Assembly (NCBI GenBank): GCA_050012075.1
Contig: JBEKHW010000001.1
Span: 68,766-132,765, forward strand
Direction of reading: 5' to 3'
Length of the DNA: 64,000 nt
From: Candidatus Omnitrophota bacterium
GTDB lineage: Bacteria; Omnitrophota; Gorgyraeia; Gygaellales; Profunditerraquicolaceae
In this document: positions 11,992 through 64,000 of the stretch, one piece after another
Position numbering within the stretch: position 1 is the stretch's first letter
Layout: every line of letters starts with the position of its first letter
Notes under the pieces: generated by a model
Told to the model about the DNA's origin: nothing
The model's database searches: none
What the model saw: only the letters and a program-made list of their open reading frames with translations
Position numbers and translations under genes: made by a program

Positions 11992-11997
11992 TGATTT

Positions 11998-21187: not shown

Positions 21188-21529
21188 TTAGCCTATTGCA
21201 ACAGACCCCTTCTCTTCAGTCCTGATCCTGATACATTCTTTTAAATCAAGAACGAATATTTTTCCGTCTCCGGTCTCTCCTGTCTTTGCGCCCTTGATGA
21301 TTGCTGCTATGGTCGGCTCGACAAAATTCTCGTTTACCGCAATCTCAAGGCGGATTTTCCTTAAGAGATTACCTGTCTCCTTGTGGCCGCGGTAAACTTC
21401 GGTAACCCCTTTCTGCCGGCCATGGCCGAGAACTTCGCTTACGGTAATAAGATTTACCTCTGCCTTGTAAAGTTCTTCTTTTACATCTTCGAGTTTATGC
21501 GGCTGGATTATCGCAATGATTAATTTCAT
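21188..21529 (-). CDS. glnK: P-II nitrogen regulatory protein (copy 1)
   Basis: 113 aa. Begins [21 protein letters not shown]-loop region is RGHKETG. Adjacent to amt. Confidence 0.9.
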
Positions 21530-21549
21530 ATTAGCCCCCTTTTATCATG

Positions 21550-21577
21550 GTGACTTTGTGACCTGTGACTTTGTGAC
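21550..21577. repeat. GTGACTTTGTGAC-ct-GTGACTTTGTGAC element between amt and glnK (copy 1)
   Basis: Lies in the 52-nt amt-glnK spacer, directly upstream of the glnK ribosome-binding site. Confidence 0.8.
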
Positions 21578-21581
21578 ATCT

Positions 21582-22868
21582 TTATTCAAGTACCGTATAC
21601 GCCCTCTCCCTGTGCTGCGTAAGATCAAGCCCCATGGCTTCTTCTTTTTCGCTGACGCGTATCCTGAAAAATATATCCACAAATTTATATATAATATAGG
21701 TAACAACAAAGGTGTAAGCTACCGCTGCTACAACCCCGATTAACTGTATCAAAAACTGCCGGGGATTACCGGCAAATAAACCATTTGCCCCTGCGGCATT
21801 TATTGCTTTGGAGGCAAATAACCCTGTAGCCAGAGTTCCCAGGATTCCTCCTAAACCATGCACCCCAAAAGCGTCCAGGGAATCATCATAACCGAACTTG
21901 GGCTTGATAACGGCGACCCCGATAAAACACAAGATGCTTGCAAAGACCCCTATTATTAACGCTGAGGAAGGACTAATAAAACCCGAGGCAGGAGTAACCG
22001 TAGCCAGGCCTGCGATAGAACCGGTGACAGCGCCAAACATTGTGGGTTTTCCGTTACGGACCCATTCCAGAAGCGCCCAGGTCAACCCTGCTGCCGCTGC
22101 CGCTGCGTTAGTCGCCACAAATGCACTGACTGCTAGGCCATTTGCCGCTAAAGCGCTACCGGCATTAAAACCAAACCAACCAAACCATAGTAAAGCTGTT
22201 CCCAAGGCTACGAAAGGAAGGTTGTGCGGGACAGGAGTATTGTGCTCCAGGTTCTTTCTTTTGCCGATAGCCAGGGCTACAACTAAAGCAGCAATACCTG
22301 CGCTCGTATGCACTACAATTCCTCCTGCAAAATCAAGGACACCTAAATTCCTTAACCAGCCACCCATTCCCCAAACCCAGTGGCAAAGCGGGTCATAGAC
22401 AAAAGTAGCCCATAGAATGCTAAAAACCAGAAACGCCGAAAATTTCATCCTTTCCGCAAAAGCACCAATAATTAATGCCGGTGTGATTATCGCAAACATC
22501 GCCTGAAAAATCATGAATGCCTGATGAGGGATAGTAGCGCTGTAGCCGCTAAAAGGCTCAATGCCGACCCCATTTAAACCAAACCAACTCAGGCCTCCCC
22601 AGAAACCTTTGCTCGGAGCAAAAGAAAGGCTGTAACCAAAAAGCATCCAATGTACTGTCAATAAACATAATATCACAAAACACTGCATTAGGATACTTAG
22701 GATATTCTTCCTTCTGACCATGCCTCCATAGAAAAATGCCAACCCCGGAGTCATCAACATCACAAAGGCCGTAGAGATTAAAACAAACGCCGTGTCTGCC
22801 CCATTAATCATATTGCCTCCTTCACAGCAGTGAACACTTGCCTCGATAAAACAAGGTGTTCCTTGCAC
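21582..22868 (-). CDS. amt: Ammonium transporter (copy 1)
   Basis: 428 aa, 11-TM Amt/MEP family. C-terminus is EAMGLDLTQHRERAY. Confidence 0.9.
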   Translation of the reverse strand: MQGTPCFIEASVHCCEGGNMINGADTAFVLISTAFVMLMTPGLAFFYGGMVRRKNILSILMQCFVILCLLTVHWMLFGYSLSFAPSKGFWGGLSWFGLNGVGIEPFSGYSATIPHQAFMIFQAMFAIITPALIIGAFAERMKFSAFLVFSILWATFVYDPLCHWVWGMGGWLRNLGVLDFAGGIVVHTSAGIAALVVALAIGKRKNLEHNTPVPHNLPFVALGTALLWFGWFGFNAGSALAANGLAVSAFVATNAAAAAAGLTWALLEWVRNGKPTMFGAVTGSIAGLATVTPASGFISPSSALIIGVFASILCFIGVAVIKPKFGYDDSLDAFGVHGLGGILGTLATGLFASKAINAAGANGLFAGNPRQFLIQLIGVVAAVAYTFVVTYIIYKFVDIFFRIRVSEKEEAMGLDLTQHRERAYTVLE

Positions 22869-22895
22869 AATTGGTTAAACAACTGTGTAAAAACA

Positions 22896-22949
22896 GTTTA
22901 AAAAATAAAGGCGTTCATAACAGTTTGGTCGTAACTATCATGAACGCCT
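22896..22949 (-). terminator. Terminator/attenuator between glnK copy 2 and amt copy 1
   Basis: Minus strand: aggcgttcat-N21-atgaacgcct, then ttatttttt. Confidence 0.6.
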
Positions 22950-23055
22950 AATTGCGCTATCTCATTATAAACACTGCAACGTGCTTATAGCTAGTTACCT
23001 ATACAAGTAATAAACTCGATATTTTGGTAATCCGAATATTTGACTGCTTAAAGAT

Positions 23056-23397
23056 TTACCCAATCGCCAGCGAACCGCGCTCCTCGGTCCTGATTCTTAT
23101 GCACTCCTTTAAATCCAGGACAAAGATCTTGCCATCCCCGGTCTCTCCTGTCTTTGCGCCTTTTATTATGGCTTTTATGGTCGGCTCGACAAAATTATCG
23201 TTTACAGCGATTTCAAGGCGAACCTTTCTAAGCAGATTTCCCGTCTCTTTCGCCCCGCGGTAAACCTCAGTAACACCCTTTTGCCGGCCATGGCCTAGGA
23301 CCTCACTTACGGTAATAAGATTTACCTCTGCCTTATAAAGCTCTTCTTTTACATCTTCGAGTTTATGCGGCTGGATTATCGCAATGATTAATTTCAT
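23056..23397 (-). CDS. glnK: P-II nitrogen regulatory protein (copy 2)
   Basis: 113 aa. Differs from copy 1 at only a few residues; the 5' DNA is identical. Confidence 0.9.
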
Positions 23398-23417
23398 ATT
23401 AGCCCCCTTTTATCATG

Positions 23418-23430
23418 GTGACTTTGTGAC
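23418..23430. repeat. Single GTGACTTTGTGAC unit between amt and glnK (copy 2)
   Basis: Same position as in copy 1, but a single unit. Confidence 0.75.
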
Positions 23431-23434
23431 ATCT

Positions 23435-24718
23435 TTATTCAAGTACAGTATACGCCCTCTCTCTATGCTGCGTAAGGTCAAGTCCCATGGCTTCTTCTTT
23501 TTCGTTGACGCGTATGCCGATAAATACATCCACCAGTTTATAGATTATAGCTGTTACTGCCAGAGAGTAAATTAGCGTGACCGCCACGGCAGTTAACTGC
23601 ACCAGGAATTGCTTTGGGTTGCCAAAGAAAAGCCCGTCTCCACCCGCAGCATTTACGCTCTTCGAAGCAAAAAGCCCGGTAGCTAATGCGCCCCATATAC
23701 CGCCTACACAGTGCACGCCAAATGCGTCCAGGGAATCGTCATAACCGAACTTGGGCTTGATAATACTGACGGCAGTAAAACAGAAGACACTTACCAGCAA
23801 TCCTATAATAATCGCCGGAATTACGCTCACAAACCCGGCTGCGGGAGTGATGGCTACGAGGCCCGCTACTGCTCCTGAAGCTGCGCCGAAAATGGTAGGT
23901 TTGCCGTTACGAATCCATTCAATTATTGCCCAGCTTAACCCGGCGCTAGCTGCTGCGGTATTGGTAACCACAAAAGCATTCACTGCCAGGCCATTTGCCG
24001 CTAAAGCACTGCCGGCATTAAAACCAAACCAGCCAAACCAGAGAAGACCTGTGCCCAAGATTACAAAAGGCATATTGTGCGGTGCAGGAACATCTTTTTC
24101 TATATTCCTCCTCTTGCCGATAAATAATGCTGTTACCAACGCAGCAATACCCGCATTTATGTGTACTACGGTGCCGCCGGCAAAATCAAGAGCGCCCATC
24201 TGTCTTAAGAACCCGCCGACCCCCCAGACCCAGTGACAAACAGGGTCATATACAAATGTCGCCCACAGGAGCACAAAAGCAACAAATGCGGAAAACTTCA
24301 TTCTCTCTGCAAATGCACCCAGTATTAATGCCGGTGTGATTATCGCAAACATCGCCTGAAAAATCATAAATGCCTGATGCGGGATTGTACCTGCGTAATC
24401 CGCATACGGCCCAAAACCTACTCCCTTTAACCCAAGCCAGCCAAAGCCGCCCCAAAATCCAGTCGAAGGCGCAAAAGAAAGGCTATAGCCATATAAAACC
24501 CACTGCACACTTATGACACACATTATTATGAAACACTGCATAAGTATGCTTAGGATGTTCTTCTTCCTGACCATGCCGCCATAGAAGAATGCCAGCCCCG
24601 GGGTCATCAGCATAACCAGGGCCGAAGAAATCAAAACCCATGCCGTATCACCTGCATTAATCATTTCTACCCTCCCTTGCCCACAAAGGGCACACTTGCG
24701 CAATACCGATAAGCGCAA
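23435..24718 (-). CDS. amt: Ammonium transporter (copy 2)
   Basis: 427 aa. Paralog of 21582..22868. Confidence 0.9.
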   Translation of the reverse strand: MRLSVLRKCALCGQGRVEMINAGDTAWVLISSALVMLMTPGLAFFYGGMVRKKNILSILMQCFIIMCVISVQWVLYGYSLSFAPSTGFWGGFGWLGLKGVGFGPYADYAGTIPHQAFMIFQAMFAIITPALILGAFAERMKFSAFVAFVLLWATFVYDPVCHWVWGVGGFLRQMGALDFAGGTVVHINAGIAALVTALFIGKRRNIEKDVPAPHNMPFVILGTGLLWFGWFGFNAGSALAANGLAVNAFVVTNTAAASAGLSWAIIEWIRNGKPTIFGAASGAVAGLVAITPAAGFVSVIPAIIIGLLVSVFCFTAVSIIKPKFGYDDSLDAFGVHCVGGIWGALATGLFASKSVNAAGGDGLFFGNPKQFLVQLTAVAVTLIYSLAVTAIIYKLVDVFIGIRVNEKEEAMGLDLTQHRERAYTVLE

Positions 24719-24724: not shown

Positions 24725-24904
24725 TTAATTAATCCCTAGTTTCTCCCTGACTAACTTCGCGTAAACTTTGTTTATACGTTTGGTCTTCAACCATCTCTCT
24801 ATGGTAGTAACCTGAATATCAAGCTTCTTGGATAAATCGTAAAGGGTATAGCTTCTTTCTTCTTTTAAGATTAAAAGTCTTCTAATCAATTCTAGGTCTA
24901 CCAT
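24725..24904 (-). CDS. Unannotated 59-aa helix-turn-helix protein (excisionase/AlpA-like or sigma-region-4-like small DNA binder)
   Basis: My own translation is MVDLELIRRLLILKEERSYTLYDLSKKLDIQVTTIERWLKTKRINKVYAKLVREKLGIN. Its start overlaps the stop of the upstream OMP gene as TAATG. It is absent from the ORF track because it is shorter than 60 aa. Confidence 0.45.
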   Translation of the reverse strand: MVDLELIRRLLILKEERSYTLYDLSKKLDIQVTTIERWLKTKRINKVYAKLVREKLGIN

Positions 24905-25722
24905 TAGAAATCCAGATCCAATTGAAAGGTTATCGTATCTTTCGCATTAGGATTATTATAGATGTCGTAAGCAATGATAGCGGAAACATTGCTGGTGAAT
25001 TTCCAGGAGAAACCGAAGTTAAGCGCTCCGTATGAAGACTGGGTTCCCTGATAATCAGCGCATATCCACAACCTGTCTGATATCTCGGTCATCACCCTTT
25101 CCCAGGCAATCATAGGGCCGGCATTATCACGCTCGCCGTTTTTATCACGCAATAACCTGGCGCTGCCGTTGAAATAGCCGGCTGAGAAACGGCCCAGGCT
25201 AAGCTTACCTATATATAAGCTCTTTGCAACCCTGAGATACCAGATATTATTACCGGTAACGTCGTGTTTTGTGCCGATATCATAACCGCCTATGGCAAAA
25301 GCAGGCATAAACTTAAAATAAGCATCCTCGGGAACTCCGAATTTAAAATGAAAATACCATGGATAGGTGTCGGCTGCGGGGCCAAACCCTTTTTTATAGT
25401 CAAAACCGGTTTCCGCCATGATTTTTCCTAAAGGAGACCATAACTTGCCTAAAAGGTTATTTTCGGGCTTATCAGAAAGAAGGCTGAAGGTCGGTCCGTA
25501 AACCTGCTGGACATAAAGTTGGTTATCATTATGGTCCCTGCTTTTAACAGGAGTATAATTATCCACATTTAAATGTATCTTTCCGTAAGGTTGAATATCG
25601 GTTGAGGGAGTCCAGATAAGAGTAGTAGGCGTAGCAAAAGCAATATTTGCGCATATGCTAAAAATACAAAAAATTCCCGTCAAAATCAGGCAGTTCTTAA
25701 ACAGGCGTGTTTCTAGTTGCAT
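24904..25722 (-). CDS. Outer-membrane beta-barrel (porin-like) protein
   Basis: 272 aa. Signal peptide, alternating beta-strand pattern, and a C-terminal ...LDLDF ending in Phe. Confidence 0.5.
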   Translation of the reverse strand: MQLETRLFKNCLILTGIFCIFSICANIAFATPTTLIWTPSTDIQPYGKIHLNVDNYTPVKSRDHNDNQLYVQQVYGPTFSLLSDKPENNLLGKLWSPLGKIMAETGFDYKKGFGPAADTYPWYFHFKFGVPEDAYFKFMPAFAIGGYDIGTKHDVTGNNIWYLRVAKSLYIGKLSLGRFSAGYFNGSARLLRDKNGERDNAGPMIAWERVMTEISDRLWICADYQGTQSSYGALNFGFSWKFTSNVSAIIAYDIYNNPNAKDTITFQLDLDF

Positions 25723-28425: not shown

Positions 28426-29175
28426 TTAAGATTTTTTGGCTTTTATATCTTTGGCCAGGATTATCGCTTCGGCAATCTCGCGCATGGATTTACGCGTATC
28501 CATACTTTGTTTCTGGATAAGCCGATATGCCTCGGAAGGAAGAATATTTGCTTCCTGGGATAATATATCCTTTGCCCGTTCTACAAGCTTACGGGTAGTC
28601 AATGCCTCTTCGGCGCTGCGCGCCCTCAAATCAAGCTCCGCGTTCTCAATGGCAATTGCCGCCTGGTTAGCCAGGGCAGTAAGGACATCTATTTCATGCT
28701 TGGAGAATTTATGTTTTTTGGAAGTATAGCAGTTAAGGACCCCGATTACCCTTCCTTTTACTGACATAGGGACACTGGCCAGCGAGCATAGCCCTTCTTT
28801 TTTGGCGATATCCTGGTTAAGGTAACGGCTATCACCCTTAACATCCTCTACTACAATCGGCCTATTCTCTTTTGCTACGATCCCCGCGATCCCGACCCCC
28901 ATCTTTATATTCGGCTTCTTATTGTATGCCTCTGAGATTGACTGCGTGGCCTTTACCACTAATTCCTGTTTATCCGGGTCAAGCAGTAGGAGGGAGGATA
29001 TTTTGGAATTCATCACTTCCGCGGTAACCTGCACAACCAGGCGCAGGAGTTCCTCCAGGTACAGGCCGCTGGTGATAAGGTTGGCTATCTTGGAAAGCGC
29101 TTCTATCTGTTTTACATAAAGGTCGTAATGTTCTTTCTTCTTCTGAACCATGTTATCTGCCCCTGCTGTTGACAA
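28426..29175 (-). CDS. GAF-ANTAR domain regulator (putative RNA-binding antiterminator)
   Basis: 249 aa. Central GAF-like region. The C-terminal ANTAR-like helix is TTRKLVERAKDILSQEANILPSEAYRLIQKQSMDTRKSMREIAEAIILAK. Confidence 0.65.
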   Translation of the reverse strand: MSTAGADNMVQKKKEHYDLYVKQIEALSKIANLITSGLYLEELLRLVVQVTAEVMNSKISSLLLLDPDKQELVVKATQSISEAYNKKPNIKMGVGIAGIVAKENRPIVVEDVKGDSRYLNQDIAKKEGLCSLASVPMSVKGRVIGVLNCYTSKKHKFSKHEIDVLTALANQAAIAIENAELDLRARSAEEALTTRKLVERAKDILSQEANILPSEAYRLIQKQSMDTRKSMREIAEAIILAKDIKAKKS

Positions 29176-37009: not shown

Positions 37010-37336
37010 TTATGAAAAGGAAAGGCCTGTATTATCAGGAGGGATATAGATTTTACTATCTTCGCCGAAGTCCAACCCGTGCTGCCAGAGGCCGTTATTA
37101 ATTTCTTTGGACCAAACCACAGTTGCTTGCTTAGAGAGGTTTTCCCGGGATATAAAAGGCGCGCTAATAACCAGGTTAATCTTCTGGTTAATGGCCAGGG
37201 CCATATGCGAAAGAATCCCTGCGCCCCGCGCGCTTAAGTCCTTCAAAATAGAGGATTGTTCCGTGCCTTCGGGTGCGGATAGGAAACAGGAACGGTTTAC
37301 CTTAAAACGGTTATATGACCTTCTATAAGCTGGCAT
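37010..37336 (-). CDS. PilZ domain protein
   Basis: 108 aa. RRSYNR (RxxxR) and DLSARGAG (DxSxxG) motifs. Confidence 0.55.
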   Translation of the reverse strand: MPAYRRSYNRFKVNRSCFLSAPEGTEQSSILKDLSARGAGILSHMALAINQKINLVISAPFISRENLSKQATVVWSKEINNGLWQHGLDFGEDSKIYIPPDNTGLSFS

Positions 37337-47710: not shown

Positions 47711-48925
47711 TTATTCGTATTTAATCTCATCCAGATAGAAGGTCGCGCCTTCCGGGTTGTTATCGATATTTGCCGACCAGCAGAATCCTCCGATTACGTA
47801 TGACATATCCTTGCCTTTTAAATCTATTGTATACTGCTGCCAATCTTTGGTAAGGATAACCGGCCCTATCACTGCGCTGTCAGAATCAGAGAACTCTCCC
47901 ATAATGCCGCCAACCTTGAATTCTTCTATGCGTTCGCCGCCCTTTGCGCCCTTAGCCCAAAAGGTTAGCTTTACGGCCTTAGAGAGATCGTATCCGCCAT
48001 CGATGGTGCCCCAGTTGTTCGCGGGATGCTGCCAGAAAATACCTGCCCATCGCGCGCCCTGCGCTGCTTTGCCGTTGTAGATAATCTTGATGCAGCTGTC
48101 GCCTAAATAGGCGTCTTCGCGGGAGGCATTATCATATTTTATATCTCCGTAATCACCCATCCAGCCTGAAGGAATAAAATGATTTTTAGGTGATGAGCTG
48201 TCGGAATAGATATAAAATGGCATTGCCTCGGATTTTTTTGCCTCAGGCTTCATGGCAGTATCTGCTTCATATTTGACGTCATCAATATAGAATGTGCAGC
48301 CTTGCGGAGCGAGGTCCGAGGTAATCACCCAGCCAAACCCTCCGTTTATATAGGAAAGGTCTTTGCCTGCCAGGTTAACCGTATATTGTTTCCAGGTATC
48401 TGTCAATTCAATCGGCCCCATTTCTACTGATGTTGAATCAGGATACACGCCTTTTATGCCGCCGACTATCACCTTTTGCAGGACCTCGCCGCCCTTTGCG
48501 CCCTTTGCCCAAAAGGTAAGTTTGGTCATGCCGGTAAGGTCAAAGCCGCCTTTTTTATTTCCCCAGTTGTTGGCGGGATTCTGCCAATAAACACCTGCCC
48601 AGCCCAATCCTTGCGATTTCTTGGCGCTGTAGGTAAATTGAATACAGGTGGTGCCGGAATGAGGGGTCTCCGTCGCCTGGTCGTTCATCTTGATATCGCC
48701 GTAATCACCCATCCAGCCTGAAGGAATAAAATGATTTTCGCGGTTAGCCTTATCGCTATAGACCGCAAATTCCTTTTTTTCCGGGGCTTTTGGTGCTACC
48801 GTTACCGTCGTAGCTGCCGTTGACACAGTCGTTGTCGTAGTTGTGGTAGTATTGGCAACTTCTTCGGCAAATACGCATGGCGTAATTACCGCAAGAACAG
48901 CCAAAATTACTAATAACTTTTTCAT
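47711..48925 (-). CDS. Secreted protein with a poly-Thr linker and two tandem roughly 170-aa repeat domains (carbohydrate-binding-like)
   Basis: A strong SD (gaggaggtg) precedes Met11 (MKKLLVILAVLA...). Internal duplication: HFIPSGWMGDYGDIK...LTFWAKGAKGGE appears twice. Confidence 0.5.
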   Translation of the reverse strand: MKKLLVILAVLAVITPCVFAEEVANTTTTTTTTVSTAATTVTVAPKAPEKKEFAVYSDKANRENHFIPSGWMGDYGDIKMNDQATETPHSGTTCIQFTYSAKKSQGLGWAGVYWQNPANNWGNKKGGFDLTGMTKLTFWAKGAKGGEVLQKVIVGGIKGVYPDSTSVEMGPIELTDTWKQYTVNLAGKDLSYINGGFGWVITSDLAPQGCTFYIDDVKYEADTAMKPEAKKSEAMPFYIYSDSSSPKNHFIPSGWMGDYGDIKYDNASREDAYLGDSCIKIIYNGKAAQGARWAGIFWQHPANNWGTIDGGYDLSKAVKLTFWAKGAKGGERIEEFKVGGIMGEFSDSDSAVIGPVILTKDWQQYTIDLKGKDMSYVIGGFCWSANIDNNPEGATFYLDEIKYE

Positions 48926-49009
48926 ACACACCTCCTCATTTGGTTCATGGTTCATGGCAAAATATTCTACTATGAACTATGAACTATCAACTATCAACTA
49001 TGAACTATA

Positions 49010-54514: not shown

Positions 54515-54741
54515 CTTTCCTATCCTTTCTTTTAATGGGGAATGGGATATATGAGGACGAATTACCTTAAAAACGAATACTAAAATGTAACATATATTTA
54601 CTTTTAGGTCAAGATTTTTTTGCCTACATTGGCATCTACCTGGCGCTAATCGGAATTGCGCCAGTATTGCCCTCGTGGGCAAACCCACGCAAGGCGTAAC
54701 TTCTTCACTCTCTTACCTATATGTGTATAGATAATCCTGCA

Positions 54742-55461
54742 TTACCTGGCTGCCAATAAGCCGGACATTCCCATTAAATTGGCCCTTTCAAGGTTCACGC
54801 CTACCCGGAAATTCTCCCTGCCGCCTTTTTCGCACCAGGCCACTTCCCCGCGTAAATAATGCGGCTCTTGCCTCCCCGGGACTTCTACCCACATCTCTAT
54901 GGGCGCGCTATTGGATAATTGCCCATTCAGGGTAATACCTAGCCCCTTGGCGCTGATATCGTTTGTCCAGCCCCTGCCTTCCTGGTTGGAAAATAAATCA
55001 ATGTAACGCAGGTTAAAGCGCGCCGGAAACCGTTCAAAAACCCGCTTGTCGGAAAACTTCTCTCCTTCCATATTCTCACCACCTTTCTTATTTTCTTCTT
55101 TGATACCCCTGCGCCATTCTTTCTTGATTTGTCCTGCGCAGTAGCGCCGGGCAAATTGGCTGATTTTTTCTTTATCGTCGTCGCTTATCTTACTAAAATA
55201 CAACCCGTATACATTATGGCCGTCTATTATCTTCTGCCAGGCCACCCAGCATGTTGCTTCTACAGAGCAATCCTTGCTTAGTGTAATGCGCAAGTTCTTA
55301 TAGGTATCTTTCTCTATCCTGCGGCTGATAATAATCTGCGCGCCCTTAAAACAAATATCCCTGAGCTGGCAATCGACAGATTCTTTACCGTCGCCCACTG
55401 CCACCTTTACCTGTTTATACAACAGGTAACGCTGGAATTCTCTACGCTCTTTAATCTCCAT
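54742..55461 (-). CDS. Tandem PilZ-domain protein
   Basis: 239 aa. Two RxxxR ... D/NxSxxG units: RREFQRY...LRDICFKGAQI and DKRVFERF...TNDISAKGLGI. Confidence 0.6.
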   Translation of the reverse strand: MEIKERREFQRYLLYKQVKVAVGDGKESVDCQLRDICFKGAQIIISRRIEKDTYKNLRITLSKDCSVEATCWVAWQKIIDGHNVYGLYFSKISDDDKEKISQFARRYCAGQIKKEWRRGIKEENKKGGENMEGEKFSDKRVFERFPARFNLRYIDLFSNQEGRGWTNDISAKGLGITLNGQLSNSAPIEMWVEVPGRQEPHYLRGEVAWCEKGGRENFRVGVNLERANLMGMSGLLAAR

Positions 55462-55467
55462 CGCCGT

Positions 55468-56262
55468 TTAACTAATGCCTGTCCACCACTGTTTTCTTAG
55501 CTCCTTCGGGAAATTGCTCTCAACATAATCATAGATCCTGGTTTTATATGCGTCATTGAGGTCGTGAAAGCGCAGCCCATAACAGCAATCCTGTTCGCCA
55601 TCCTGGCTCCAGGCAACAGACGCCTCTGTCCGAAAACCCAAACCGTCTGCCAGATCCACCCTTATCCTTGATAATGCTTCGGGAAATACCTTCCGGGGCA
55701 AAAACACACGCATCCCCTCGGTGCTTATATCCCTGACCGTACACGGCATCCCCCTGCCGCACTCTTGATCAAGCATGATCTGTGCCGGTTGATTCACTTC
55801 CCATCTCACCATCTTCCTGCGCTCATCCATCTTATTCTCACCTCCCTTCCCCGCTAGGGGACACCCGCGCAATTTCCCCACAGAGGGGACACCGGCGCAA
55901 TTCAAATAAGCGCCGGGTGCATGCATCGCACGAGGTGCTATTGTTTTCCCGTGGCTTTTCTGTACTAACTGGCGATTAATTAATTTAGACGCAGCTGTAA
56001 ATAAAATGGGCAACTCTCGTGCGGAAAGATACGGGGCAAGATGACGCGTTAAGGCATCACTTTTAGATGGGGTGTTGTCTGGAAGTTTTTCAAAATCCGC
56101 TCTTACCTGCAACATCTTTCCTCGTGTTGGCTTCCGGTGTTCTTGCGTAACAGAAACTTCTTGCTTCCCCAAAGGAGAAAATAAGTCTCTGCGCCTTCCG
56201 TGGCTAGATCGCAGGCTGCTATTGTTACCCATTATTATATCCCAAGTTACGTAAAATATCAT
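55468..56262 (-). CDS. PilZ-domain protein (PilZ at the C-terminus; N-terminal start uncertain)
   Basis: ERRKMVRWEV ... VRDISTEGMRVFLP. Confidence 0.5.
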   Translation of the reverse strand: MIFYVTWDIIMGNNSSLRSSHGRRRDLFSPLGKQEVSVTQEHRKPTRGKMLQVRADFEKLPDNTPSKSDALTRHLAPYLSARELPILFTAASKLINRQLVQKSHGKTIAPRAMHAPGAYLNCAGVPSVGKLRGCPLAGKGGENKMDERRKMVRWEVNQPAQIMLDQECGRGMPCTVRDISTEGMRVFLPRKVFPEALSRIRVDLADGLGFRTEASVAWSQDGEQDCCYGLRFHDLNDAYKTRIYDYVESNFPKELRKQWWTGIS

Positions 56263-56315
56263 ATTTTATTTTTACTCATTGTGTTGCTTTTAAAATATCC
56301 ACCTCTGCCCAAAAA

Positions 56316-59300
56316 TTATGGCAGAGGAGGAGACTTCTGCAGTATCCGTAACCATTCAATCAGCTGAATTAAGGAACTTATTTTTTCACCCACAAAAACA
56401 TACCTGGAGTCATCTACATATATCGGCCCTACCTTATCGTATCTGACGGGGCCGTATTCCTCTTCTTCCGTAAAGGCGATTTCAGGGAGCCTGGCCGGCG
56501 TCGATGAGCTTTTCCCGGCAACATCGCAACCCGTATCTGGTTTGTTTCCGGATGCCGGCGAGCTGCCGATATTATCCTTACTTTTTTTTGTTTTACTCAC
56601 TACTGCCTTACCCATCTTTCTCCGGCAAGCGTTGATTAGGTCGGTCTGGGGATAGGTCAATCCTTCATCATTTTCTAAGGCACCAATTTGATCCAATATG
56701 GCTTTTGCCTTGTGCTTGCGGCCTTTACCCAGGGCATTAGTTAGCTGCCAATATAAATTGCTGAATTTTCTTTCTTGTTCCAGTGCCTCTTGTTCGCCAT
56801 CCGTGTCAAGAGAAGATAACTGGGATGTTTTCTCTGGGAGTGCCTGTGTTAAAAACAATGGCACAGGTTCTCTTTTAAATTTAATCGTCATTATGGCAAC
56901 ATAACGCAGCTGTGTGCCCTTTTCTGCTGCCGCTTCAATTAATTTCTTTTCTGCGTAATCCAGAGCCTTTATAATCTCATTATCCTCTCCGCAATTATTA
57001 GGTAATGTCTCAATATGCTCACGGAAGAACGCCAACAAGAAGGGCCATTCATTCAACTTCACGATATGCTCGATCTGTTCCGCGAGCGTCTTCCCCTTTA
57101 ACTCACGACGGCTCCGGAGCTTGTCTTTTAAATAATCGCTTTTGTCCAGCCACCCCATGGCCGCCTCGCATCTTTCTATAGTAAAATCTGGGGCCTTTAG
57201 CTCCTCTACTGCCAGCTGCGCTTCATCCTGCGCCGGAGAGCTGCCGGTTACTCCAGAATTATCCTTTCCGCCGCCTGCGCCGCCGCCTTGAGGTCCATTG
57301 CGTAAAGACACTTTATTACCGTGACTCTCATTCTCTTCTGGATCCATGCTACGCAAGACAAATTCATCATCTTTAAGAAGAGCAACTTTAAATTGACTCC
57401 TTAAACCTTTTATAAAATCAGACAATTCTACCTTGCCGTCCTCCGTTGCTAAATTCCAAGTATTGGGAAAAATTAAAACATGGGTAGATGGGCTAATATT
57501 ACCCAACAGATTAAATAGCCTTTTGAGTGCATGCGGCATGAGATGATGTATTACTGCATTAATCATTATAAAATCCGCTGAAAGGGCGCGATTTATAATA
57601 TTCTCATCAATAATATTCCCAAAAATTAGTTCAATTGAATCTTTTACAAAAGGTAAGTTTCGATTCACGAAATTAACCTTTGCCTGATAACGTTCAAATT
57701 CCCGCTGAGACGGTAAGTCAGGATTTTTTAACTCAAAACCAGAATCTAAATGGATTCTTGCTAGAGATAAGAAATCTTGTTCTATATCAACCCCCGTAAC
57801 TTTTAGCTGAAGGTTCTTCCCAAATTTTATACCCCATTCAGGATGTCTACTGACTTCATCAAACACAACAGCAGCTAGCGAGGCAGGCTCCTCTCCGGTA
57901 CCACAACCTAAACTCCACATATTTATCTTAACAGGTAATTCGTTATTATGTTTTTCCCTATCTATAATTATCGCTAAAGATTGCCTTATGTACTCGTATT
58001 CTTTATCACATCTTAAACAATCAGATTGGCTAACTACAATAAGATACTGATCTATAAGATACTGATGAGCCGAAGAATTCACATTATTCAAGTCAGCAAT
58101 AACCCGATGAATATCATAGTTATACTGCCTGAAACAATCATACAAATAAGAAGCCCCAGACTGCTGCGCTGACATCTCTTCTATCAATTGCCTGAGAAAA
58201 TTCAAAGAGGTTGGCGCTCTTCGAGAATCGCCGAACACCTTCTCATAAATACCTGTGCTGTAAAAAACATTCTCGATTGTTTTTATTTCTGCCTGACTGA
58301 TATTATAGCGGGACATAATATCGTGTAGTTCCGATAACATTCCCTCTTTCTCCGCCGGCGAGCTGCCGCGCTTAATAACTTCAGTAAACTTAATCGCTGT
58401 CTCTAGGGGGTTTGCTACCTGGGTAATCGCTGAATTTACCAGGAAACCATTAAATCCTATCATTAATGCTTGCCTGGCCTGTTCGGGGACACCTATACCG
58501 CACTCAGCAATTAACGAAATATCCGGCCGTATTTCCCTAACCCACCTTATGATATCTTTCATTTTCGTAATATCGCCCAAACCTTGGTTAGAACCCGGCT
58601 TTGTCCCTTCAATACGTAAAGCAATGACCTGAGGCGTTTTTAACAATTTTTTTAGCTTTGCTCTGCCAATATCTTTTCCTATTAAAGGGATAATCTTAAT
58701 GTTTTTGTTTAATCCAGCTAACTTACGGGTTGCTTCCAGAATATTGTCATTTTTAGTCATGAAATTATCATCTCTGATTTCAAGCTTAACATAAGGAGAT
58801 TTCATAATCATAATCCCTAACCCTGCCATTTTTACAGCCGCATCCACTGTTTGACACCTACTGGTATTGATGAGAATAATAAAATCTCTGGTTTTATTTT
58901 GTTTGGTTAATTTCTCATGAACTAATTTTATATAATCTAACTGCGCAAATTCCGACACTGAATTTAAATCACCTTCTTTACCCAACCTGCACCAGCCAGC
59001 ATTATCTTCAATCTCGGCTTTCTGCAGATAGCTCTCCATAGGTTTTATATGATATCCGGCCCTCATGTTTAATTCTTCGATACGCACAGGTGTAAAAATA
59101 AAGAATTGTGCGTTTGACTCTACGACAATGTCAGCTGCTATTTCCGTGGTAAGGATTTTAATGCAACTTCCTTTACCACGCGCATCATTAGATATATGTG
59201 TAATGGCTAGCGGAGCGATAAAAGGATATAATTGTCTATTATCAATTACTATACCGCCGTGCCTGCCCGCGCTGGCGGCAGGGCTGCTGCCGCACACACT

Positions 59301-62300
59301 AACGAAACCATCGGATTGTACTTGGTAAGCATCATCGGTGGCAGATTCAGCGGCAAGTTTTCGTGCCTCTTCGGGAATATAACAGTCTTCCAGCCATTTC
59401 AGGTTATTTTCAATCACCGCCCGTTCCTGAATCTCGCCTGCAAATGCCCTGGGAAAGATAATCTTTCCCCCCTCCTCTAATAATTTCTTCTTTGCCTGCA
59501 ACCAATAAGATACATTACAAGATATTGGTTGGTACTTCCATCCCTTCGGAAGACGGTCATTAACTTCGTGTATGGCTATTTGATAAGGAATCAAGATTTC
59601 AATCGCCCTTAATCTTTGGTTAATTTCCTGGATGTTCATCTCAATTGCTGCGTCTGCGTTTTTCCTTAACAACTCTTTCTTGGCCACCAACCATTCCCTT
59701 ACCGGTGAAAATAAATCTAATCCTTCATCGATCAGCCGGTCAATCACTTCATAGTAGGCGTCTCTATATGCCGCCGCTAATTTACCCGCTATCTCGGGTT
59801 TGATGAGCAACCCTAGATTGGCTTTTTGCGCCCTATGGTGCTCAATTTGGTCAATAAGTTTTGCGATATAATTATAGAATTCCTCCGCTATTTCAGGCAT
59901 CTTTGGCAACATTTGCTCTAAATTGCGTTTGGTCTGTCTTAAGGCCGTCAGGTTGGCTAAAGTACTGATTTCTTCTAATTCTAATGGGCGTAAGATTAGC
60001 GCTTCCAGCAAATCCTGGTTAAGCTTGAGGACGATGCTGAAAAATTCCTCTTTTAAAGCGGCTTTTCTCTGAACCCATTTTTTTCTCTCCCTGTTAAATA
60101 AGCTTCGGGAAAAATCCTGGATTTGTTTAATGTCCCATGGCGATAAACCGTCAGGCCATTCCTGACAAAATACTATTTCTCGCATAATCTCCAACATTTG
60201 CCTAATTTCTTCAAGGTCGGTAAGCTGGAGTATTTCGCCAGCTACTAAGCTGCGGATCTCGAGATGCGGAGAACGCAGCCTTGCTTTCAACCTCTCTAGT
60301 TTATGCTCCCAAAGTTCCGTAGTTGTTTCGTACACAGTTATTGTTTCCTCGGGCAGCTCTGAGTCGCCCTCACTGCCGGCAGGGCTGCTGCCGCGGATGT
60401 ATTTTTTCCTGTCTGCTAATTTTGCCAAAACTTCTTCTGCTTCAAGCAATCGCAAGACATTACGGTCATGCGCGCGGATATCGGTAAATAACTTCTGCCT
60501 ATCTATTTGTTTATCTGTAATTGCAGTATACCAGTTAGCCAGATGAGAAACCGAGTTCCACTGCGCCATGGTAATACCATTGAATACGCGGGCTCCCTTG
60601 TTATGCGCCTGATATAAGAACGGGGTGACCAATGGGTCTGTGATAATATCAATCACGGTTTGCCTTCGCGAAATTATTTTTGCGGCACCGGCAAAAGGAA
60701 CCGGGCCGTGCAAATCAGAATGCATGCCAACACCGGTGGCATTAACTATTACCAAGGAATTACGTAAAAGTTTTTTAGATTCAATGAAATTGAACCTACC
60801 AAAACCCATAGACTCCATAATCTGGAGCTTTTCAATGCCTGCACCCGCTAAGGCAAAATTAATTTCCATTCCTGCCCCGCCCAAGCCTAGAATCGTGAGA
60901 GTTCTTTTTTTCCAATTTGGCGGAAACTGGCTTTTGTACGCCTTAAGAAACGCAGCGCCATCTGTAGCGTCAAGCATTAACCGACCGTCTTTCTTAGTTA
61001 TATGGTTAATCGCCCCGGCTTCCTCAACGGCATCCGAAGCAATAACTAAATGCTTGTATTCTCTGGACATATAAATCTCCTTGGCTCTCATTTTCCAAGG
61101 CGCGGTCACTACGGCTCCGATTACACGCGGAGAGTCTTTCATCAAAGCCAATGCCTCGGCAAGTTGCGTTTCGTCTTGCACGGGATACGACACGCGAAGC
61201 GCATCAAGGCCTAAAATATTTCTAAAGGCGTTTTCATATTTCTTATCGGAATTTAGCGAGCCGGATTTTCCTATAAATAATGCAAATTTTGTGCTCTTGT
61301 TGACGGCAAATCCTTCCTGCTCTGCCAGAACCTCAAGCTCATCTTCAAAATTGGAGACGGTTCTATTTTTCGCCGGCGAGCTGCCAGCAGTAAGGCTTGC
61401 TGTTTGAGGCCCCTCTTTGGATTTATTTTGCGCAGCATATTCAAGGGCATTCAAGTACCACCACTGGGCTTCGCGGGAGACCTTCCATGCTCTTATGTCT
61501 ATCCTATTTTTAAAAATGGGGCCGTCTAATACTATCGTGTGATAATCATTATAATCTCCTATTAAGTCAATATTACTATCATGCAAGAACTTCATAAAGT
61601 CAGAGTCTATTTTATGGCCAAGCCATGACCTGCCGATAGCTTCCGATGGGGTGCTTACGACAATTGCCTCAAACCCGTCATGCAAGAAATTCCTAAGAGC
61701 GTCTTCCGGTCCCTGTTCATATAAAAGTTGGGGCGCATCCAATCCAAGCTCTGCGCATGTCTGCTTAAGCCATAATGCATTTATGCAGGGCCCGAATTCA
61801 TGCCCTCCGAAGATACAACCCCTGATCTTCCGGTCATTGCTCCTAAGTTCTGCTATGGCATCCATGAATTCAACTGAATCGTAATATTCTCCCCGTACCT
61901 CTTTTTTATAAAGAGAAACCCCCAATGCATTTGCCTGCAATTGCAATAATCCTGTTTCTGTCCCATGAAAACATACTCTTGTCTGCTTTTCTGAAACAAA
62001 ACTAACGAGGGAAGAAACGTTATATCCTTTCTGCAGCGCCCGATACAAAGCATGGCAGCAATCTTTCCCGCCACTCCAGAATAACAAATAATGCCCATTC
62101 GCCGGCGAGCTGCCGACTTCCTTTGGCCTCTCTGCTGGCCGACCATTCGCCGGCGCGGATGTGCCTGCCTGGGAAAGTCCGCCGGATTCAAGGCCCGGCA
62201 TTCTTTGATTATCAAGCAGATTATTTTCACTGCCGCGGTGGAAAACATTATCCGGCTCCAATCCCTTGATCCTACACAGATGCTCATGGAAAAAGTTATT

Positions 62301-64000
62301 ATATTGAGCTGTTGTCATTTCCGGCTTTAAGAGATCGCTATATCCTCTTAAGACCTTCAAAAATTCGCTGTATTGTGTATTATAAACTGTCTCATATCTT
62401 GTCTCTGCGGACGGCGTTCTTTGCGCAAGGGCTTTTCCAGATTCTTGATGGAGGCTGGCGATAATCCTGTCTAATGCGAGGCGAGCTTGTTCTATTCTCC
62501 CCTTCCTTGCCTCTATTGTTTGAGCCACAATTGGGCCAATGGCAGACCTGATCCTCTGGACAAACTCTTTGAATTTCACAGAATATGCATCTGCGGGCTG
62601 TCTTGTCGAAGGAACTTCTTGCAATTTTCTAATTTTACCGAGGATGTCTGAACGGTTAAGCTCAAAAGCACATAAAAATATTCTTAGCGCCATATAATAG
62701 CCGAATTTTTTGCCGTTTTCTCTGATATTACCGCGGGCAATGCTGATATTCTGCATTCCTTTAATGATCTGATGCAGCCAGTCATCTATTTCTGCCTGTT
62801 CTGAAGCCAGTCCGCCTTGCTGGATATATAAATCTCCTGCATCTTCCGCCGGAGAGCTGCCGCGGCCGCCCGCGTTGCCGCCAAACTCCCCATCTAATAC
62901 TAAATGCCCTGAAGCGTAATAATCTATATCTATATAATCTCGCACACTCCCCTCTAATTCTAATATAGTTTTGCCTGTAACAAGAACTAACCTTTTAAGT
63001 TGTGTGCAGCCCCAGAGAAAATCTTTTATTCTACAAATTTGTGCCACTATCTTCATAACATTATCTCGCAACTCCCAATCATTCTCTCTTAATATACAGC
63101 TTAAAACTGCCCTATCGCCGAAATTATCCATTCCTAGCTTATGTACGATAAGCCGTGCTTCTTGCTTATTGAGCCCAAGCATGAGAAATTTATCGGCAAT
63201 GTTCCAATAATTTCTATACGAGGCGCGTAGTTTATCACAGTTTCGTTTTAATGTGGCCTTGTCCCTAATAACAGCTCCTATAAAAGAATCGAATTCTTTA
63301 ATTACTTTATTTATCTCATCAAACGCCTGCCTTGCCCAGTCCCTGAATTTCTCCATTTTATCCAGCTCCATGACCGCTGCTGCCATATTATTTATTTCAA
63401 CCCAGTTACCGGGAATACCTGATTTTATAATACCTTGGGGCATTTCACGGCTATAAAAAGGCGAAAATCTATTTATCTTTTGCACCAATATCTCGCCATT
63501 ATTCTTATATCCTTCTTGGGCTCCTAAAACGCCGCCATTACCGCGGCCCGAAAGAATTGCATAAACAGCTCTTTCCTTTAAATGCCTTGCCGCTGTAATA
63601 AATAGCGTATCTATAGAACCTGTTGCCTCTTGAATATTTATATTATTGGTTACAAAAAGACGCTCTTCATCGTCTTTTCCAATACTAATATTATGACCGA
63701 TTATAATCGTGTCTTTTTCTAAATAAACTTTCTCATCAATATTTCCAAAGAGAATAATTTTATGCGTGAATTTCTTGACGATTTTTAGAAAACGGCGATT
63801 TTTATTTACCGGAAGGGGTGTGTTTACGACTATCGGAGGATGCTTAAGGGGTAATTTTGTTATAATTTTTTCTAGTGCCCTATAGCCGCCTTGAGATGCC
63901 CCGACTACAATAATTTTCCCTTTAAAATCCGGGACAGTTAGATTTTTCTTCTCTATTGCTCCGCTACCTACGCCTGCCTTGCGCTCTAGGCTTTCTCTTA
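56316..64000 (-). CDS. Giant multidomain protein, 5'-partial (>2560 aa). Domain order is CheB-like methylesterase, unknown helical, PP-loop ATPase-like, shikimate-dehydrogenase-like, long helical, ThiG-like TIM barrel, CheR-like methyltransferase, unknown. Domains are joined by recurring GSSPA junctions.
   Basis: The frame is open from 63488 to the window edge. My translation of 63489-64000 gives ...IIVVGASQGGYRALEKI...SIDTLFITAARHLKERAVYAILSGRGNGGVLGAQE..., a CheB catalytic-domain signature. The listed 'M' at 63488 is a TTG codon. Other motifs: LLFWSGGKDCCHAL (PP-loop); GAVVTAPWK...NATGVGM (AroE-like); KSPYVKLEIRDDN...ECGIGVPEQARQALMIGFNGFLVNSAIT (ThiG-like); WSLGCGTGEEPASLA (CheR-like). Confidence 0.8.
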   Translation of the reverse strand, partial: RESLERKAGVGSGAIEKKNLTVPDFKGKIIVVGASQGGYRALEKIITKLPLKHPPIVVNTPLPVNKNRRFLKIVKKFTHKIILFGNIDEKVYLEKDTIIIGHNISIGKDDEERLFVTNNINIQEATGSIDTLFITAARHLKERAVYAILSGRGNGGVLGAQEGYKNNGEILVQKINRFSPFYSREMPQGIIKSGIPGNWVEINNMAAAVMELDKMEKFRDWARQAFDEINKVIKEFDSFIGAVIRDKATLKRNCDKLRASYRNYWNIADKFLMLGLNKQEARLIVHKLGMDNFGDRAVLSCILRENDWELRDNVMKIVAQICRIKDFLWGCTQLKRLVLVTGKTILELEGSVRDYIDIDYYASGHLVLDGEFGGNAGGRGSSPAEDAGDLYIQQGGLASEQAEIDDWLHQIIKGMQNISIARGNIRENGKKFGYYMALRIFLCAFELNRSDILGKIRKLQEVPSTRQPADAYSVKFKEFVQRIRSAIGPIVAQTIEARKGRIEQARLALDRIIASLHQESGKALAQRTPSAETRYETVYNTQYSEFLKVLRGYSDLLKPEMTTAQYNNFFHEHLCRIKGLEPDNVFHRGSENNLLDNQRMPGLESGGLSQAGTSAPANGRPAERPKEVGSSPANGHYLLFWSGGKDCCHALYRALQKGYNVSSLVSFVSEKQTRVCFHGTETGLLQLQANALGVSLYKKEVRGEYYDSVEFMDAIAELRSNDRKIRGCIFGGHEFGPCINALWLKQTCAELGLDAPQLLYEQGPEDALRNFLHDGFEAIVVSTPSEAIGRSWLGHKIDSDFMKFLHDSNIDLIGDYNDYHTIVLDGPIFKNRIDIRAWKVSREAQWWYLNALEYAAQNKSKEGPQTASLTAGSSPAKNRTVSNFEDELEVLAEQEGFAVNKSTKFALFIGKSGSLNSDKKYENAFRNILGLDALRVSYPVQDETQLAEALALMKDSPRVIGAVVTAPWKMRAKEIYMSREYKHLVIASDAVEEAGAINHITKKDGRLMLDATDGAAFLKAYKSQFPPNWKKRTLTILGLGGAGMEINFALAGAGIEKLQIMESMGFGRFNFIESKKLLRNSLVIVNATGVGMHSDLHGPVPFAGAAKIISRRQTVIDIITDPLVTPFLYQAHNKGARVFNGITMAQWNSVSHLANWYTAITDKQIDRQKLFTDIRAHDRNVLRLLEAEEVLAKLADRKKYIRGSSPAGSEGDSELPEETITVYETTTELWEHKLERLKARLRSPHLEIRSLVAGEILQLTDLEEIRQMLEIMREIVFCQEWPDGLSPWDIKQIQDFSRSLFNRERKKWVQRKAALKEEFFSIVLKLNQDLLEALILRPLELEEISTLANLTALRQTKRNLEQMLPKMPEIAEEFYNYIAKLIDQIEHHRAQKANLGLLIKPEIAGKLAAAYRDAYYEVIDRLIDEGLDLFSPVREWLVAKKELLRKNADAAIEMNIQEINQRLRAIEILIPYQIAIHEVNDRLPKGWKYQPISCNVSYWLQAKKKLLEEGGKIIFPRAFAGEIQERAVIENNLKWLEDCYIPEEARKLAAESATDDAYQVQSDGFVSVCGSSPAASAGRHGGIVIDNRQLYPFIAPLAITHISNDARGKGSCIKILTTEIAADIVVESNAQFFIFTPVRIEELNMRAGYHIKPMESYLQKAEIEDNAGWCRLGKEGDLNSVSEFAQLDYIKLVHEKLTKQNKTRDFIILINTSRCQTVDAAVKMAGLGIMIMKSPYVKLEIRDDNFMTKNDNILEATRKLAGLNKNIKIIPLIGKDIGRAKLKKLLKTPQVIALRIEGTKPGSNQGLGDITKMKDIIRWVREIRPDISLIAECGIGVPEQARQALMIGFNGFLVNSAITQVANPLETAIKFTEVIKRGSSPAEKEGMLSELHDIMSRYNISQAEIKTIENVFYSTGIYEKVFGDSRRAPTSLNFLRQLIEEMSAQQSGASYLYDCFRQYNYDIHRVIADLNNVNSSAHQYLIDQYLIVVSQSDCLRCDKEYEYIRQSLAIIIDREKHNNELPVKINMWSLGCGTGEEPASLAAVVFDEVSRHPEWGIKFGKNLQLKVTGVDIEQDFLSLARIHLDSGFELKNPDLPSQREFERYQAKVNFVNRNLPFVKDSIELIFGNIIDENIINRALSADFIMINAVIHHLMPHALKRLFNLLGNISPSTHVLIFPNTWNLATEDGKVELSDFIKGLRSQFKVALLKDDEFVLRSMDPEENESHGNKVSLRNGPQGGGAGGGKDNSGVTGSSPAQDEAQLAVEELKAPDFTIERCEAAMGWLDKSDYLKDKLRSRRELKGKTLAEQIEHIVKLNEWPFLLAFFREHIETLPNNCGEDNEIIKALDYAEKKLIEAAAEKGTQLRYVAIMTIKFKREPVPLFLTQALPEKTSQLSSLDTDGEQEALEQERKFSNLYWQLTNALGKGRKHKAKAILDQIGALENDEGLTYPQTDLINACRRKMGKAVVSKTKKSKDNIGSSPASGNKPDTGCDVAGKSSSTPARLPEIAFTEEEEYGPVRYDKVGPIYVDDSRYVFVGEKISSLIQLIEWLRILQKSPPLP

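Follow-up and report, generated by a model that had tools for sequence, protein, structure and literature searches.

The 64,000-nucleotide stretch of a Candidatus Omnitrophota genome analysed here (contig JBEKHW010000001.1, positions 68,766 to 132,765; hereafter, the window) carries at one end the C-terminal part of a giant open reading frame (ORF), which is encoded on the minus strand of this metagenome-assembled genome (MAG). The stop-free frame, as translated, runs from position 63998 to position 56319 (2,560 codons) and is followed by a stop codon at 56316-56318. It leaves the window at position 64000; the 2,560 residues are the visible part of the protein, and its full length is greater. 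The giant ORF had been noticed in an initial annotation of this DNA, and every peptide string quoted there is present in the translation. Our analysis showed that at least nine independent cassettes (M1 to M9) are joined in frame in this ORF, a punctuated array of the multi-enzyme class of Omnitrophota giants, in which the pentapeptide GSSPA stands at each of eight boundaries (J1 to J8). The features are given below, with nucleotide positions in the window and residue numbers in the visible protein.

56316..64000, minus strand: giant ORF, C-terminal part (2,560 codons and the stop codon), with its N-terminus outside the window.
62859..63998, minus strand: M1, residues 1-380, truncated by the window edge; CheB-like domain at residues 30-208 (nucleotides 63375-63911), then about 170 residues with no family match.
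62847..62861, minus strand: J1, GSSPA, GGCAGCTCTCCGGCG.
62112..62858, minus strand: M2, residues 381-629, no family match in Pfam or NCBIfam.
62100..62114, minus strand: J2, GSSPA.
61383..62111, minus strand: M3, residues 630-872, PP-loop ATP pyrophosphatase of the Dph6/MJ0570 type, whose domain begins 5 residues past the junction.
61371..61385, minus strand: J3, GSSPA.
60390..61382, minus strand: M4, residues 873-1203, Rossmann enzyme resembling shikimate dehydrogenase (SDH).
60378..60392, minus strand: J4, GSSPA, variant DNA GGCAGCAGCCCTGCC, inside a 29-nucleotide direct repeat shared with J5.
59289..60389, minus strand: M5, residues 1204-1570, all-alpha module with relatives only in giant proteins.
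59277..59291, minus strand: J5, GSSPA, variant DNA, repeat partner of J4.
58365..59288, minus strand: M6, residues 1571-1878, ThiG-like TIM barrel with a family-specific N-terminal extension.
58353..58367, minus strand: J6, GSSPA.
57243..58364, minus strand: M7, residues 1879-2252, CheR-type S-adenosylmethionine (SAM) methyltransferase.
57231..57245, minus strand: J7, GSSPA.
56565..57242, minus strand: M8, residues 2253-2478, whose sole relative found is a segment of the 1,396-residue protein P0068.
56553..56567, minus strand: J8, GSSPA.
56319..56564, minus strand: M9, residues 2479-2560, C-terminal unit of 82 residues with no family match.

The exact pentapeptide occurs at residues 380, 629, 872, 1203, 1570, 1878, 2252 and 2478, i.e., eight times, while 0.0018 occurrences are expected from composition (P about 3e-27). 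All copies lie between the envelopes of hidden Markov model (HMM) matches and none inside them, and GSSPA is absent from every other real ORF of the window. The eight copies delimit nine units of 82-374 residues, the first of which is truncated by the window and has 380 residues visible. No paralogy was found among the modules; the repetition of GSSPA is thus not a by-product of domain repeats, and module paralogy was rejected as its origin. Beyond the pentapeptide, nothing is conserved around the sites. The confidence of the AlphaFold models (predicted local distance difference test, pLDDT) drops below 50 beside three of the four junctions that adjoin M5 and M7, and the junctions are accordingly predicted to lie in disordered linkers. 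The initial annotation had given the order of the modules and their folds correctly; its sizes were approximate, and the true boundaries, that is, the eight GSSPA sites, were missing from it.

The five family assignments proposed there (CheB, PP-loop, SDH-like, ThiG-like and CheR) proved correct in HMM searches and agree with PDB sequence searches; CheR was additionally recovered by fold search. The segments described as helical or uncharacterised gave no family match in Pfam or NCBIfam. M1 matches PF01339 (CheB_methylest) at residues 30-208, with 59.9 bits (cut-off 24) over profile positions 1-173 of 174. The window edge lies 29 residues upstream of this domain, and any REC domain would lie beyond it. 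In an alignment with Salmonella CheB (1a2o/1chd), ungapped at both catalytic sites, the nucleophile Ser164 is retained (GASQGG); His190 is replaced by Pro (TPLP) and Asp286 by Gly (GRGNGG), in Salmonella numbering. Judged by these residues, M1 cannot act as a canonical Ser-His-Asp methylesterase.

M3 matches PF01902 (Diphthami_syn_2) at residues 639-850, with 127.6 bits over profile positions 5-213 of 219, and its PP-loop SGGKD is intact (FWSGGKDC, aligned to YSGGKDS of PDB entry 3rjz). Its score lies below the level of the diphthine-ammonia ligase equivalog (TIGR03679, 101.6 bits against a cut-off of 197.3), and it carries GDYNDYHT in place of the GEGGEFET motif. M4 was recognised by the shikimate dehydrogenase models of NCBIfam only, at about residues 917-1160 and below their cut-offs (best model, 79 bits against 252; TIGR00507, 56 against 200). 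M4 retains the catalytic Lys (APWK) and Asp (ATD) and the dinucleotide loop (GLGGAG), which align to VPFK, NTD and GAGGA of solved SDHs. The Ser-x-Ser that binds the shikimate carboxylate is replaced by Asn-x-Asp (IGKSGSLNSD, compared with IGFPVKHSLSP), so the substrate of M4 is probably not shikimate.

M5 shares 49% identity with part of the 2,750-residue protein P0001 and recurs in giants of 1,600-4,800 residues. Its AlphaFold model is all-alpha, with a mean pLDDT of 80.8 and values below 50 in the first 23 and the last 15 residues; a fold search with this model gave no specific match. M6 matches PF05690 (ThiG) at residues 1694-1880, with 66.9 bits over profile positions 51-229 of 247. The Schiff-base Lys (Lys96 of B. 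subtilis) is retained in VKLEI and is invariant across the cassette family. The relatives of M6 comprise a segment of a 1,139-residue protein and stand-alone proteins of 308-570 residues, most of which have an N-terminal hydrophobic segment at the place of the junction. These sequences form a family separate from true ThiG, with 38-46% identity inside the family, about 30% to true ThiG, and a conserved N-terminal extension, LFPLIAPTAITH.

M7 passes the Pfam cut-off for PF01739 (CheR) narrowly, with 29.0 bits against 27, at residues 2011-2083 and over profile positions 19-83 only. Its motif WSLGCGTGEEPASLA aligns to WSAACSTGEEPYTLA of CheR, and the WS..C.TGEEP.SLA motif is intact. The AlphaFold model, built with 13 relatives, has a pLDDT of 74, with values below 50 in the last 26 residues and about 60 at the N-terminal end. 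In a Foldseek search of the PDB, the nine best matches of this model were all CheR (E-values of 7e-10 to 3e-7; template modelling scores, target-based, of about 0.5-0.7). No CheR_N match was obtained in Pfam, and the first 110 residues are modelled as low-confidence helices. M7 has relatives both as stand-alone proteins of about 240 residues and as segments of giants of 1,476-4,072 residues. The best fold matches include complexes of P. aeruginosa CheR1 with the PilZ protein MapZ (5xly, 5y4r). A uniform loss of catalytic residues, a case raised in the initial annotation, was not found in these modules: SGGKD of M3, Lys and Asp of the SDH-like M4, the ThiG Lys of M6 and the CheR SAM motif of M7 are all intact.

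No consistent pairing of a start codon with a Shine-Dalgarno-like sequence was seen after the junctions, two of which lack any start codon within 45 codons. Sites resembling promoters or terminators were no more frequent than in shuffled sequence. Internal translation starts and internal promoters or terminators were rejected for these reasons, and the cassettes must therefore be made as one polypeptide. Two processing routes were also considered and rejected. Self-cleavage between Gly and Ser, of the pyruvoyl or Ntn-enzyme type, was discarded given that only the pentapeptide is conserved around the sites. A Pro directly following small residues would block signal peptidase I, and GSSPA was therefore discarded as a site of this enzyme.

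At the DNA level, six junctions read GGCAGCTCKCCGGCR and the two that flank M5 read GGCAGCAGCCCTGCC. The sequence GGCAGCTCKCCGGC is common to the six (6 matches against 0.02 expected). The Gly codon GGC and the first Ser codon AGC are used at eight of eight junctions (P about 2e-9 given local codon usage). Around M5 lies a 29-nucleotide direct repeat (59265-59293 and 60366-60394; 26 of 29 positions identical) that spans the two junctions with the variant codons AGC-AGC-CCT-GCC. This repeat looks like a trace left by cassette insertion or by gene conversion from one junction to another.

Relatives were sought with an exhaustive HMMER search in which residues 1204-2400 (M5-M8) were compared with 1.84 billion representatives, M1-M4 and M9 lying outside this query. 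Among the 138 matches, each matched module hit a different protein and no protein matched two of them, which suggests that the modules are independently shuffled cassettes. No additional matches emerged when all nine modules were compared locally with the retrieved giants. The ThiG-like and CheR-like units are also found as separate proteins of 240-570 residues, the ends of which coincide with the places of the junctions. Homologous fusions, the search for which had been suggested in the initial annotation, were not found: no protein with the same module order was present among the 1.84 billion representatives (residues 1204-2400) or in JGI metagenomes (whole visible protein), where nothing save an ordinary AroE (L009) was retrieved. 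A scan of GTDB genomes for close relatives, with residues 1-630 only as query, was negative. A word-indexed protein search with the whole protein, residues 1-629 and residues 1204-1878 gave no matches, which does not amount to absence, as this index misses relatives at 44-49% identity. A plasmid collection contained single-domain distant homologues only.

Based on the alignment of the M6 family, a degenerate-pattern scan of GTDB genomes identified seven loci, six of which are labelled Candidatus Omnitrophota. In five of the seven, the M6-like module is embedded in an open frame that extends beyond the DNA retrieved; the lengths of these frames range from over 3,700 to over 6,950 codons. Four of these five ThiG-cassette giants contain 8, 13, 14 and 11 copies of [SA]SP[ALVI], a pattern defined post hoc, after the data had been seen, against 0.5-1.0 expected (Poisson P of 1e-7 to 1e-14); the 28 ordinary proteins of the window are not enriched in it (2 copies against 1.4 expected). 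The fifth giant, L002, carries D[PG]AMV eight times, and P0012, a 4,822-residue protein matched by HMMER, carries 21 motifs of the RSE[LQ]R type against 0.39 expected. The pooled junction consensus is [GSA]-[SA]-S-P-[LVAI]-[AEG], with flanks rich in S, N and G and poor in hydrophobic residues.

In these proteins, as in the window ORF, the motifs stand between domains. In L005, a GH77 domain (residues 743-1214) lies between motifs at 732 and 1241, and the ThiG-like module is bracketed as well. In L007, a HAD domain (residues 2750-2927) lies between motifs at 2741 and 2977, while DGAMV at residue 3634 of L002 falls exactly between a ThiG-like and a WD40 module. The RSE[LQ]R-type motifs of P0012 bracket a formyltransferase, an acyltransferase, three methyltransferases and CheR. 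In five giants, a junction precedes the first conserved motif of the ThiG-like cassette by 13-25 residues, and in several of them a second one follows its last conserved motif by about 20 residues; these junctions are the points at which the stand-alone versions start and end. In L005-L008, the codons of the motif vary between copies (TCC, AGC, TCG and TCA; CCT, CCG, CCA and CCC), which indicates selection at the protein level. In L002, the 15-nucleotide motif is almost invariant (GAC CCG GCG ATG GTG); Pro-Ala is written CCGGCG both there and in the motif of the window.

Other recurrent elements were seen in these giants. P0002, P0004 and L002 share a conserved C-terminal tail, 'GGIDLN/GGIDMN...', preceded by D-x-x-M-V or a similar sequence; the window ORF has no such tail and ends in the 82-residue unit M9. 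In P0001, P0009 and P0117, modules are separated by recurrent hydrophobic segments, e.g., 'HAPPVILVGLI...', and by a repeated block of about 60 residues, 'SRLWFTLHNA...'. These segments may be an alternative punctuation by membrane hairpins.

The giants L007 and L008, from two related MAGs, share cassettes that are about 89% identical in DNA. The clearest block of homology runs from motif to motif (residues 2103-2317 of L007, residues 2456-2677 of L008), and past 'NG-SSP[L/I]' the two proteins are unrelated. A second block ends at an SSPL motif of L008, and other block ends lie at a motif or within a few residues of one; one block end, after the ThiG-like cassette, has no canonical motif in either protein. 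Two shared cassettes are separated by 167 residues in one genome and by 2,362 in the other. As these alignments indicate, cassettes have been gained, lost or replaced, and the breakpoints coincide with junctions or adjoin them. L007 (CAZPNW010000152.1) is labelled 'uncultured Planctomycetales bacterium', yet it has cassettes in common, at about 89% nucleotide identity, with the Omnitrophota MAG of L008 (JBAZKL010000001.1), and this bin label is probably wrong.

Taken together, these observations lead us to favour, with somewhat less than even confidence, the reading of the giant gene as an 'operon in one ORF', in which the junctions would be recognition sites, most plausibly for a processing protease. 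The cassettes are translated as one polypeptide with GSSPA at each boundary, inside a linker predicted to be disordered, and are gained, lost and swapped between giant genes at the junctions. Since the motif is under selection at the amino-acid level and differs between lineages, the junction peptide would be the recognition site of a specific factor. The junctions are uniform within a protein, take three chemically unrelated forms and lie in exposed linkers, and the action of this factor is therefore expected to be independent of any one side-chain chemistry. No side chain of D[PG]AMV bears a hydroxyl or an amine, which would favour cleavage or docking over covalent modification as the shared role. 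The likeliest factor would be an endopeptidase, which would cut the chain into its individual cassettes as a polyprotein is cut; it is the simplest candidate for a co-evolving recognition factor, and we infer it at close to an even chance, on the lower side. Extended to the phylum, the proposal would be that Omnitrophota giant genes are bacterial polyproteins whose lineage-specific punctuation (GSSPA/[SA]SP[ALVI], D[PG]AMV or RSE[LQ]R) is cut by co-evolving proteases and also provides the breakpoints of exchange, which is possible, if doubtful.

Several observations weigh against this proposal. To our knowledge, the junction matches no known protease specificity. Pfam detected no peptidase family in the visible part of the giant ORF, nor in the other window ORFs that were scanned, and cleavage itself is deduced from sequence. 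No close relative of the ORF, in which the positions of GSSPA could be compared, was found in our searches, and the post hoc definition of [SA]SP[ALVI] also counts here. Lastly, the junction DNA of the window is more uniform than the peptide needs, which also fits a role at the DNA level or recent gene conversion.

Among the alternatives, the one that survives best, although we consider it unlikely, is an uncleaved 'beads-on-a-string' scaffold, in which several enzymes would work on one chain as in AROM, CAD or FAS, and GSSPA would be a hinge, a docking site or a site of modification, e.g., by Ser-Pro phosphorylation or glycosylation. The lack of a protease in the visible ORF and in the neighbouring genes would agree with a scaffold, and so would a junction core of Ser-Pro amid small residues within disordered linkers rich in S, G and N; a 2026 preprint (bioRxiv 10.64898/2026.06.07.730766) also treats the giants as intact and membrane-anchored. 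Nevertheless, plain linkers do not need an identical pentapeptide at eight of eight sites while their flanks vary in length and composition. D[PG]AMV or RSE[LQ]R takes the equivalent positions in other lineages, and no modifiable residue is common to these and SSPA. Moreover, no common pathway links the cassettes, which are shuffled from giant to giant, and the CheB-like unit has no catalytic His and Asp.

A function of the junction mainly at the DNA level, as a site of microhomology or recombination for the in-frame exchange of cassettes, with the peptide as a passenger that has no function in the protein, seems to us quite improbable. The six junctions with GGCAGCTCKCCGGC, the invariant Gly and first Ser codons, the 29-nucleotide repeat around M5 and the nearly invariant motif DNA of L002 are what such a function would produce, and the homology between L007 and L008 does break at junctions. 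Against this, the peptide of L005-L008 has been kept while its DNA diverged, and every occurrence of the motif is in frame and on the coding strand. Additionally, breakpoints in linkers are expected from selection alone, as breaks inside folded domains are lethal to the domain. A role in DNA exchange is compatible with the proposed recognition of the junctions as processing sites and does not exclude it.

Very improbable, in our view, is an integrated signalling or biosynthetic enzyme, in which the CheB/CheR pair would control or finish the chemistry of the PP-loop, SDH-like and ThiG-like modules. All five folds are on one chain and four of the five modules keep key catalytic or cofactor motifs; homologues of CheR, CheB and Dph6 act on carboxyl or amide groups of proteins, PilZ genes lie downstream of the ORF, and the PilZ protein MapZ, a known partner of CheR1, is among the fold matches. 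However, the triad of the CheB-like unit is broken (His to Pro, Asp to Gly), and no relative found for M5-M8 keeps two modules together. Elsewhere, the ThiG-like cassette adjoins methyltransferase, HAD and WD40 modules, and in the window the same junction peptide sets off named and unassigned modules alike. A functional CheB/CheR pair enclosing a pathway, as the architecture described in the initial annotation might suggest, is unsupported, because the CheB-like His and Asp are lost and the matched modules occur in separate proteins. Since the matched modules have separate relatives, either stand-alone or in giants with other neighbours, the CheB/CheR bracket is best regarded, from the sequences compared, as incidental.

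That the ORF is a mis-assembly or a functionless, pseudogenised fusion is scarcely credible, even though no close homologue of the whole ORF was found and the G+C content at its third codon positions is lower than that of the neighbouring genes (0.41 against 0.49), because 7.7 kb are free of stop codons and encode five in-frame, HMM-supported domains with catalytic motifs, an independent assembly is identical over 5.15 kb, and relatives with the same organisation are present in several MAGs and one single-amplified genome. The independent assembly is a Logan contig of 5,150 bp from SRR7028477, 100% identical to positions 54575-59724 of the window, so the open frame across four junctions is not the artefact of one assembly.

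Two studies describe comparable proteins. The preprint bioRxiv 10.64898/2026.06.07.730766 is a catalogue of Omnitrophota proteins of at least 10,000 residues, and one of its classes, the 'multi-enzyme metabolic cluster', consists of chains covered by numerous different Pfam families; proteolysis, linkers and junction motifs are not mentioned in the preprint. West-Roberts et al. 2023 (bioRxiv 10.1101/2023.11.21.568195) proposed that Omnitrophota giants may be cleaved, citing C39 and S8 peptidase domains, with cleavage points that were not known. Our literature search found nothing that links Omnitrophota with polyproteins or cites GSSPA in this sense, and nothing relevant on CheB-CheR fusions. 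As in the multi-enzyme class, where unrelated families tile a long chain with no dominant repeat, the window ORF of the same phylum combines five enzyme families and four unassigned units with no internal paralogy, and the whole protein is unique while its individual modules recur. Unlike here, no recurrent junction peptide or cleavage point is described for the giants of either study. The catalogue has a threshold of 10,000 residues, whereas 2,560 are visible here in an ORF that continues past the window. Most catalogued giants are membrane-anchored; the visible part has no transmembrane-like segment among its 2,560 residues (maximum Kyte-Doolittle value over 19-residue windows, 1.32), its N-terminus lying outside the window. 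In view of the class in bioRxiv 10.64898/2026.06.07.730766, the statement that this is not a known architecture was too strong: the giant ORF is a new member of a recently described kind, and its junction punctuation appears to be undescribed.

Other systems resemble the array in part. Viral polyproteins (picornaviruses and potyviruses, with sites of the 3C/NIa type) also encode several complete proteins per frame, with a short, lineage-specific boundary motif in exposed linkers; here, in contrast, the gene is on a cellular chromosome, the folds are those of metabolic and regulatory enzymes, no protease was found in the ORF and window genes scanned, and the cleavage is putative. MARTX toxins likewise string unrelated effector domains along one bacterial chain, shuffle them between strains and have processing sites between modules, but those sites are loose (after Leu) and are cut by a built-in cysteine protease domain activated by inositol hexakisphosphate, whereas the visible part of our protein has no such domain, toxin repeats or secretion signals. 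In precursors of ribosomally synthesised and post-translationally modified peptides with several cores (cyanobactin PatE) and in neuropeptide precursors, repeated recognition sequences flank the cassettes and guide a dedicated protease; those cassettes are peptides of 6-10 residues, whereas the present ones are folded proteins of 80-375 residues. AROM, CAD and FAS carry several enzyme folds per chain, including a shikimate dehydrogenase fold in AROM. Unlike the array, whose order is not conserved and in which we see no pathway logic, they catalyse consecutive steps of one pathway in a conserved order, and they lack a conserved junction peptide. CheB-CheR fusions exist in chemotaxis-type sensor kinases (CheB_methylest-CheR_N-CheR-PAS-kinase), which also place domains of both types on one polypeptide. 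In those sensors, the two domains are adjacent and catalytic, whereas here they are about 1,800 residues and seven junctions apart, and the CheB-like triad is broken.

The question at stake is whether the products of Omnitrophota giant genes, the longest of which have about 147,000 codons, function as a single chain or are cut into pieces. According to West-Roberts et al., the missing cleavage points blocked even the computational dissection of the giants. The punctuation peptides are concrete candidate cut sites; they offer a principled way to split the giants into units for structure prediction and annotation, and they show the points at which cassettes are exchanged between giant genes. If cleavage takes place, a polyprotein strategy would be used by a free-living or predatory bacterium, and this gene organisation and mode of shuffling would be ones not described in cellular organisms. 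If it does not, the role of the motif as a conserved recognition element would still have to be explained.

Downstream of the giant ORF lie two genes that are given here as context only.

55468-56262, minus strand: PilZ-domain gene, starting 53 nucleotides downstream of the giant ORF.
54742-55461, minus strand: second PilZ-domain gene.

These two genes may be co-transcribed with the giant ORF. Through them, a link between cyclic di-GMP and the CheR-like unit is possible, and it may be a coincidence. A third, small PilZ gene is found at 37010-37336 on the minus strand.

The remainder of the window is ordinary chromosome, with genes for F-type ATP synthase, GOGAT, NAD synthase, MnmG and a class II ribonucleotide reductase, together with LacI and ROK regulators, GH2-like enzymes and a sugar ABC transporter. 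No homologues of these ordinary proteins were found in the fetched giant-gene loci, and the window ORFs that were scanned with Pfam included none for thiamine biosynthesis. The ORFs at 24904-25722 and 47711-48955 (272 and 414 residues) have no significant Pfam family. The regions 10462-24718 and 28426-29175 contain a dense nitrogen-assimilation block, with the large and small subunits of GOGAT, glutamine synthetases of types I and III, and two tandem Amt-P-II pairs, and, beyond this block, a GAF-ANTAR regulator that adjoins NAD synthase. All function-assigned ORFs of at least 100 residues across the 64-kb window are on the minus strand, and this orientation, together with the presence of MnmG (GidA), would fit a site on one replichore, not far from the origin.

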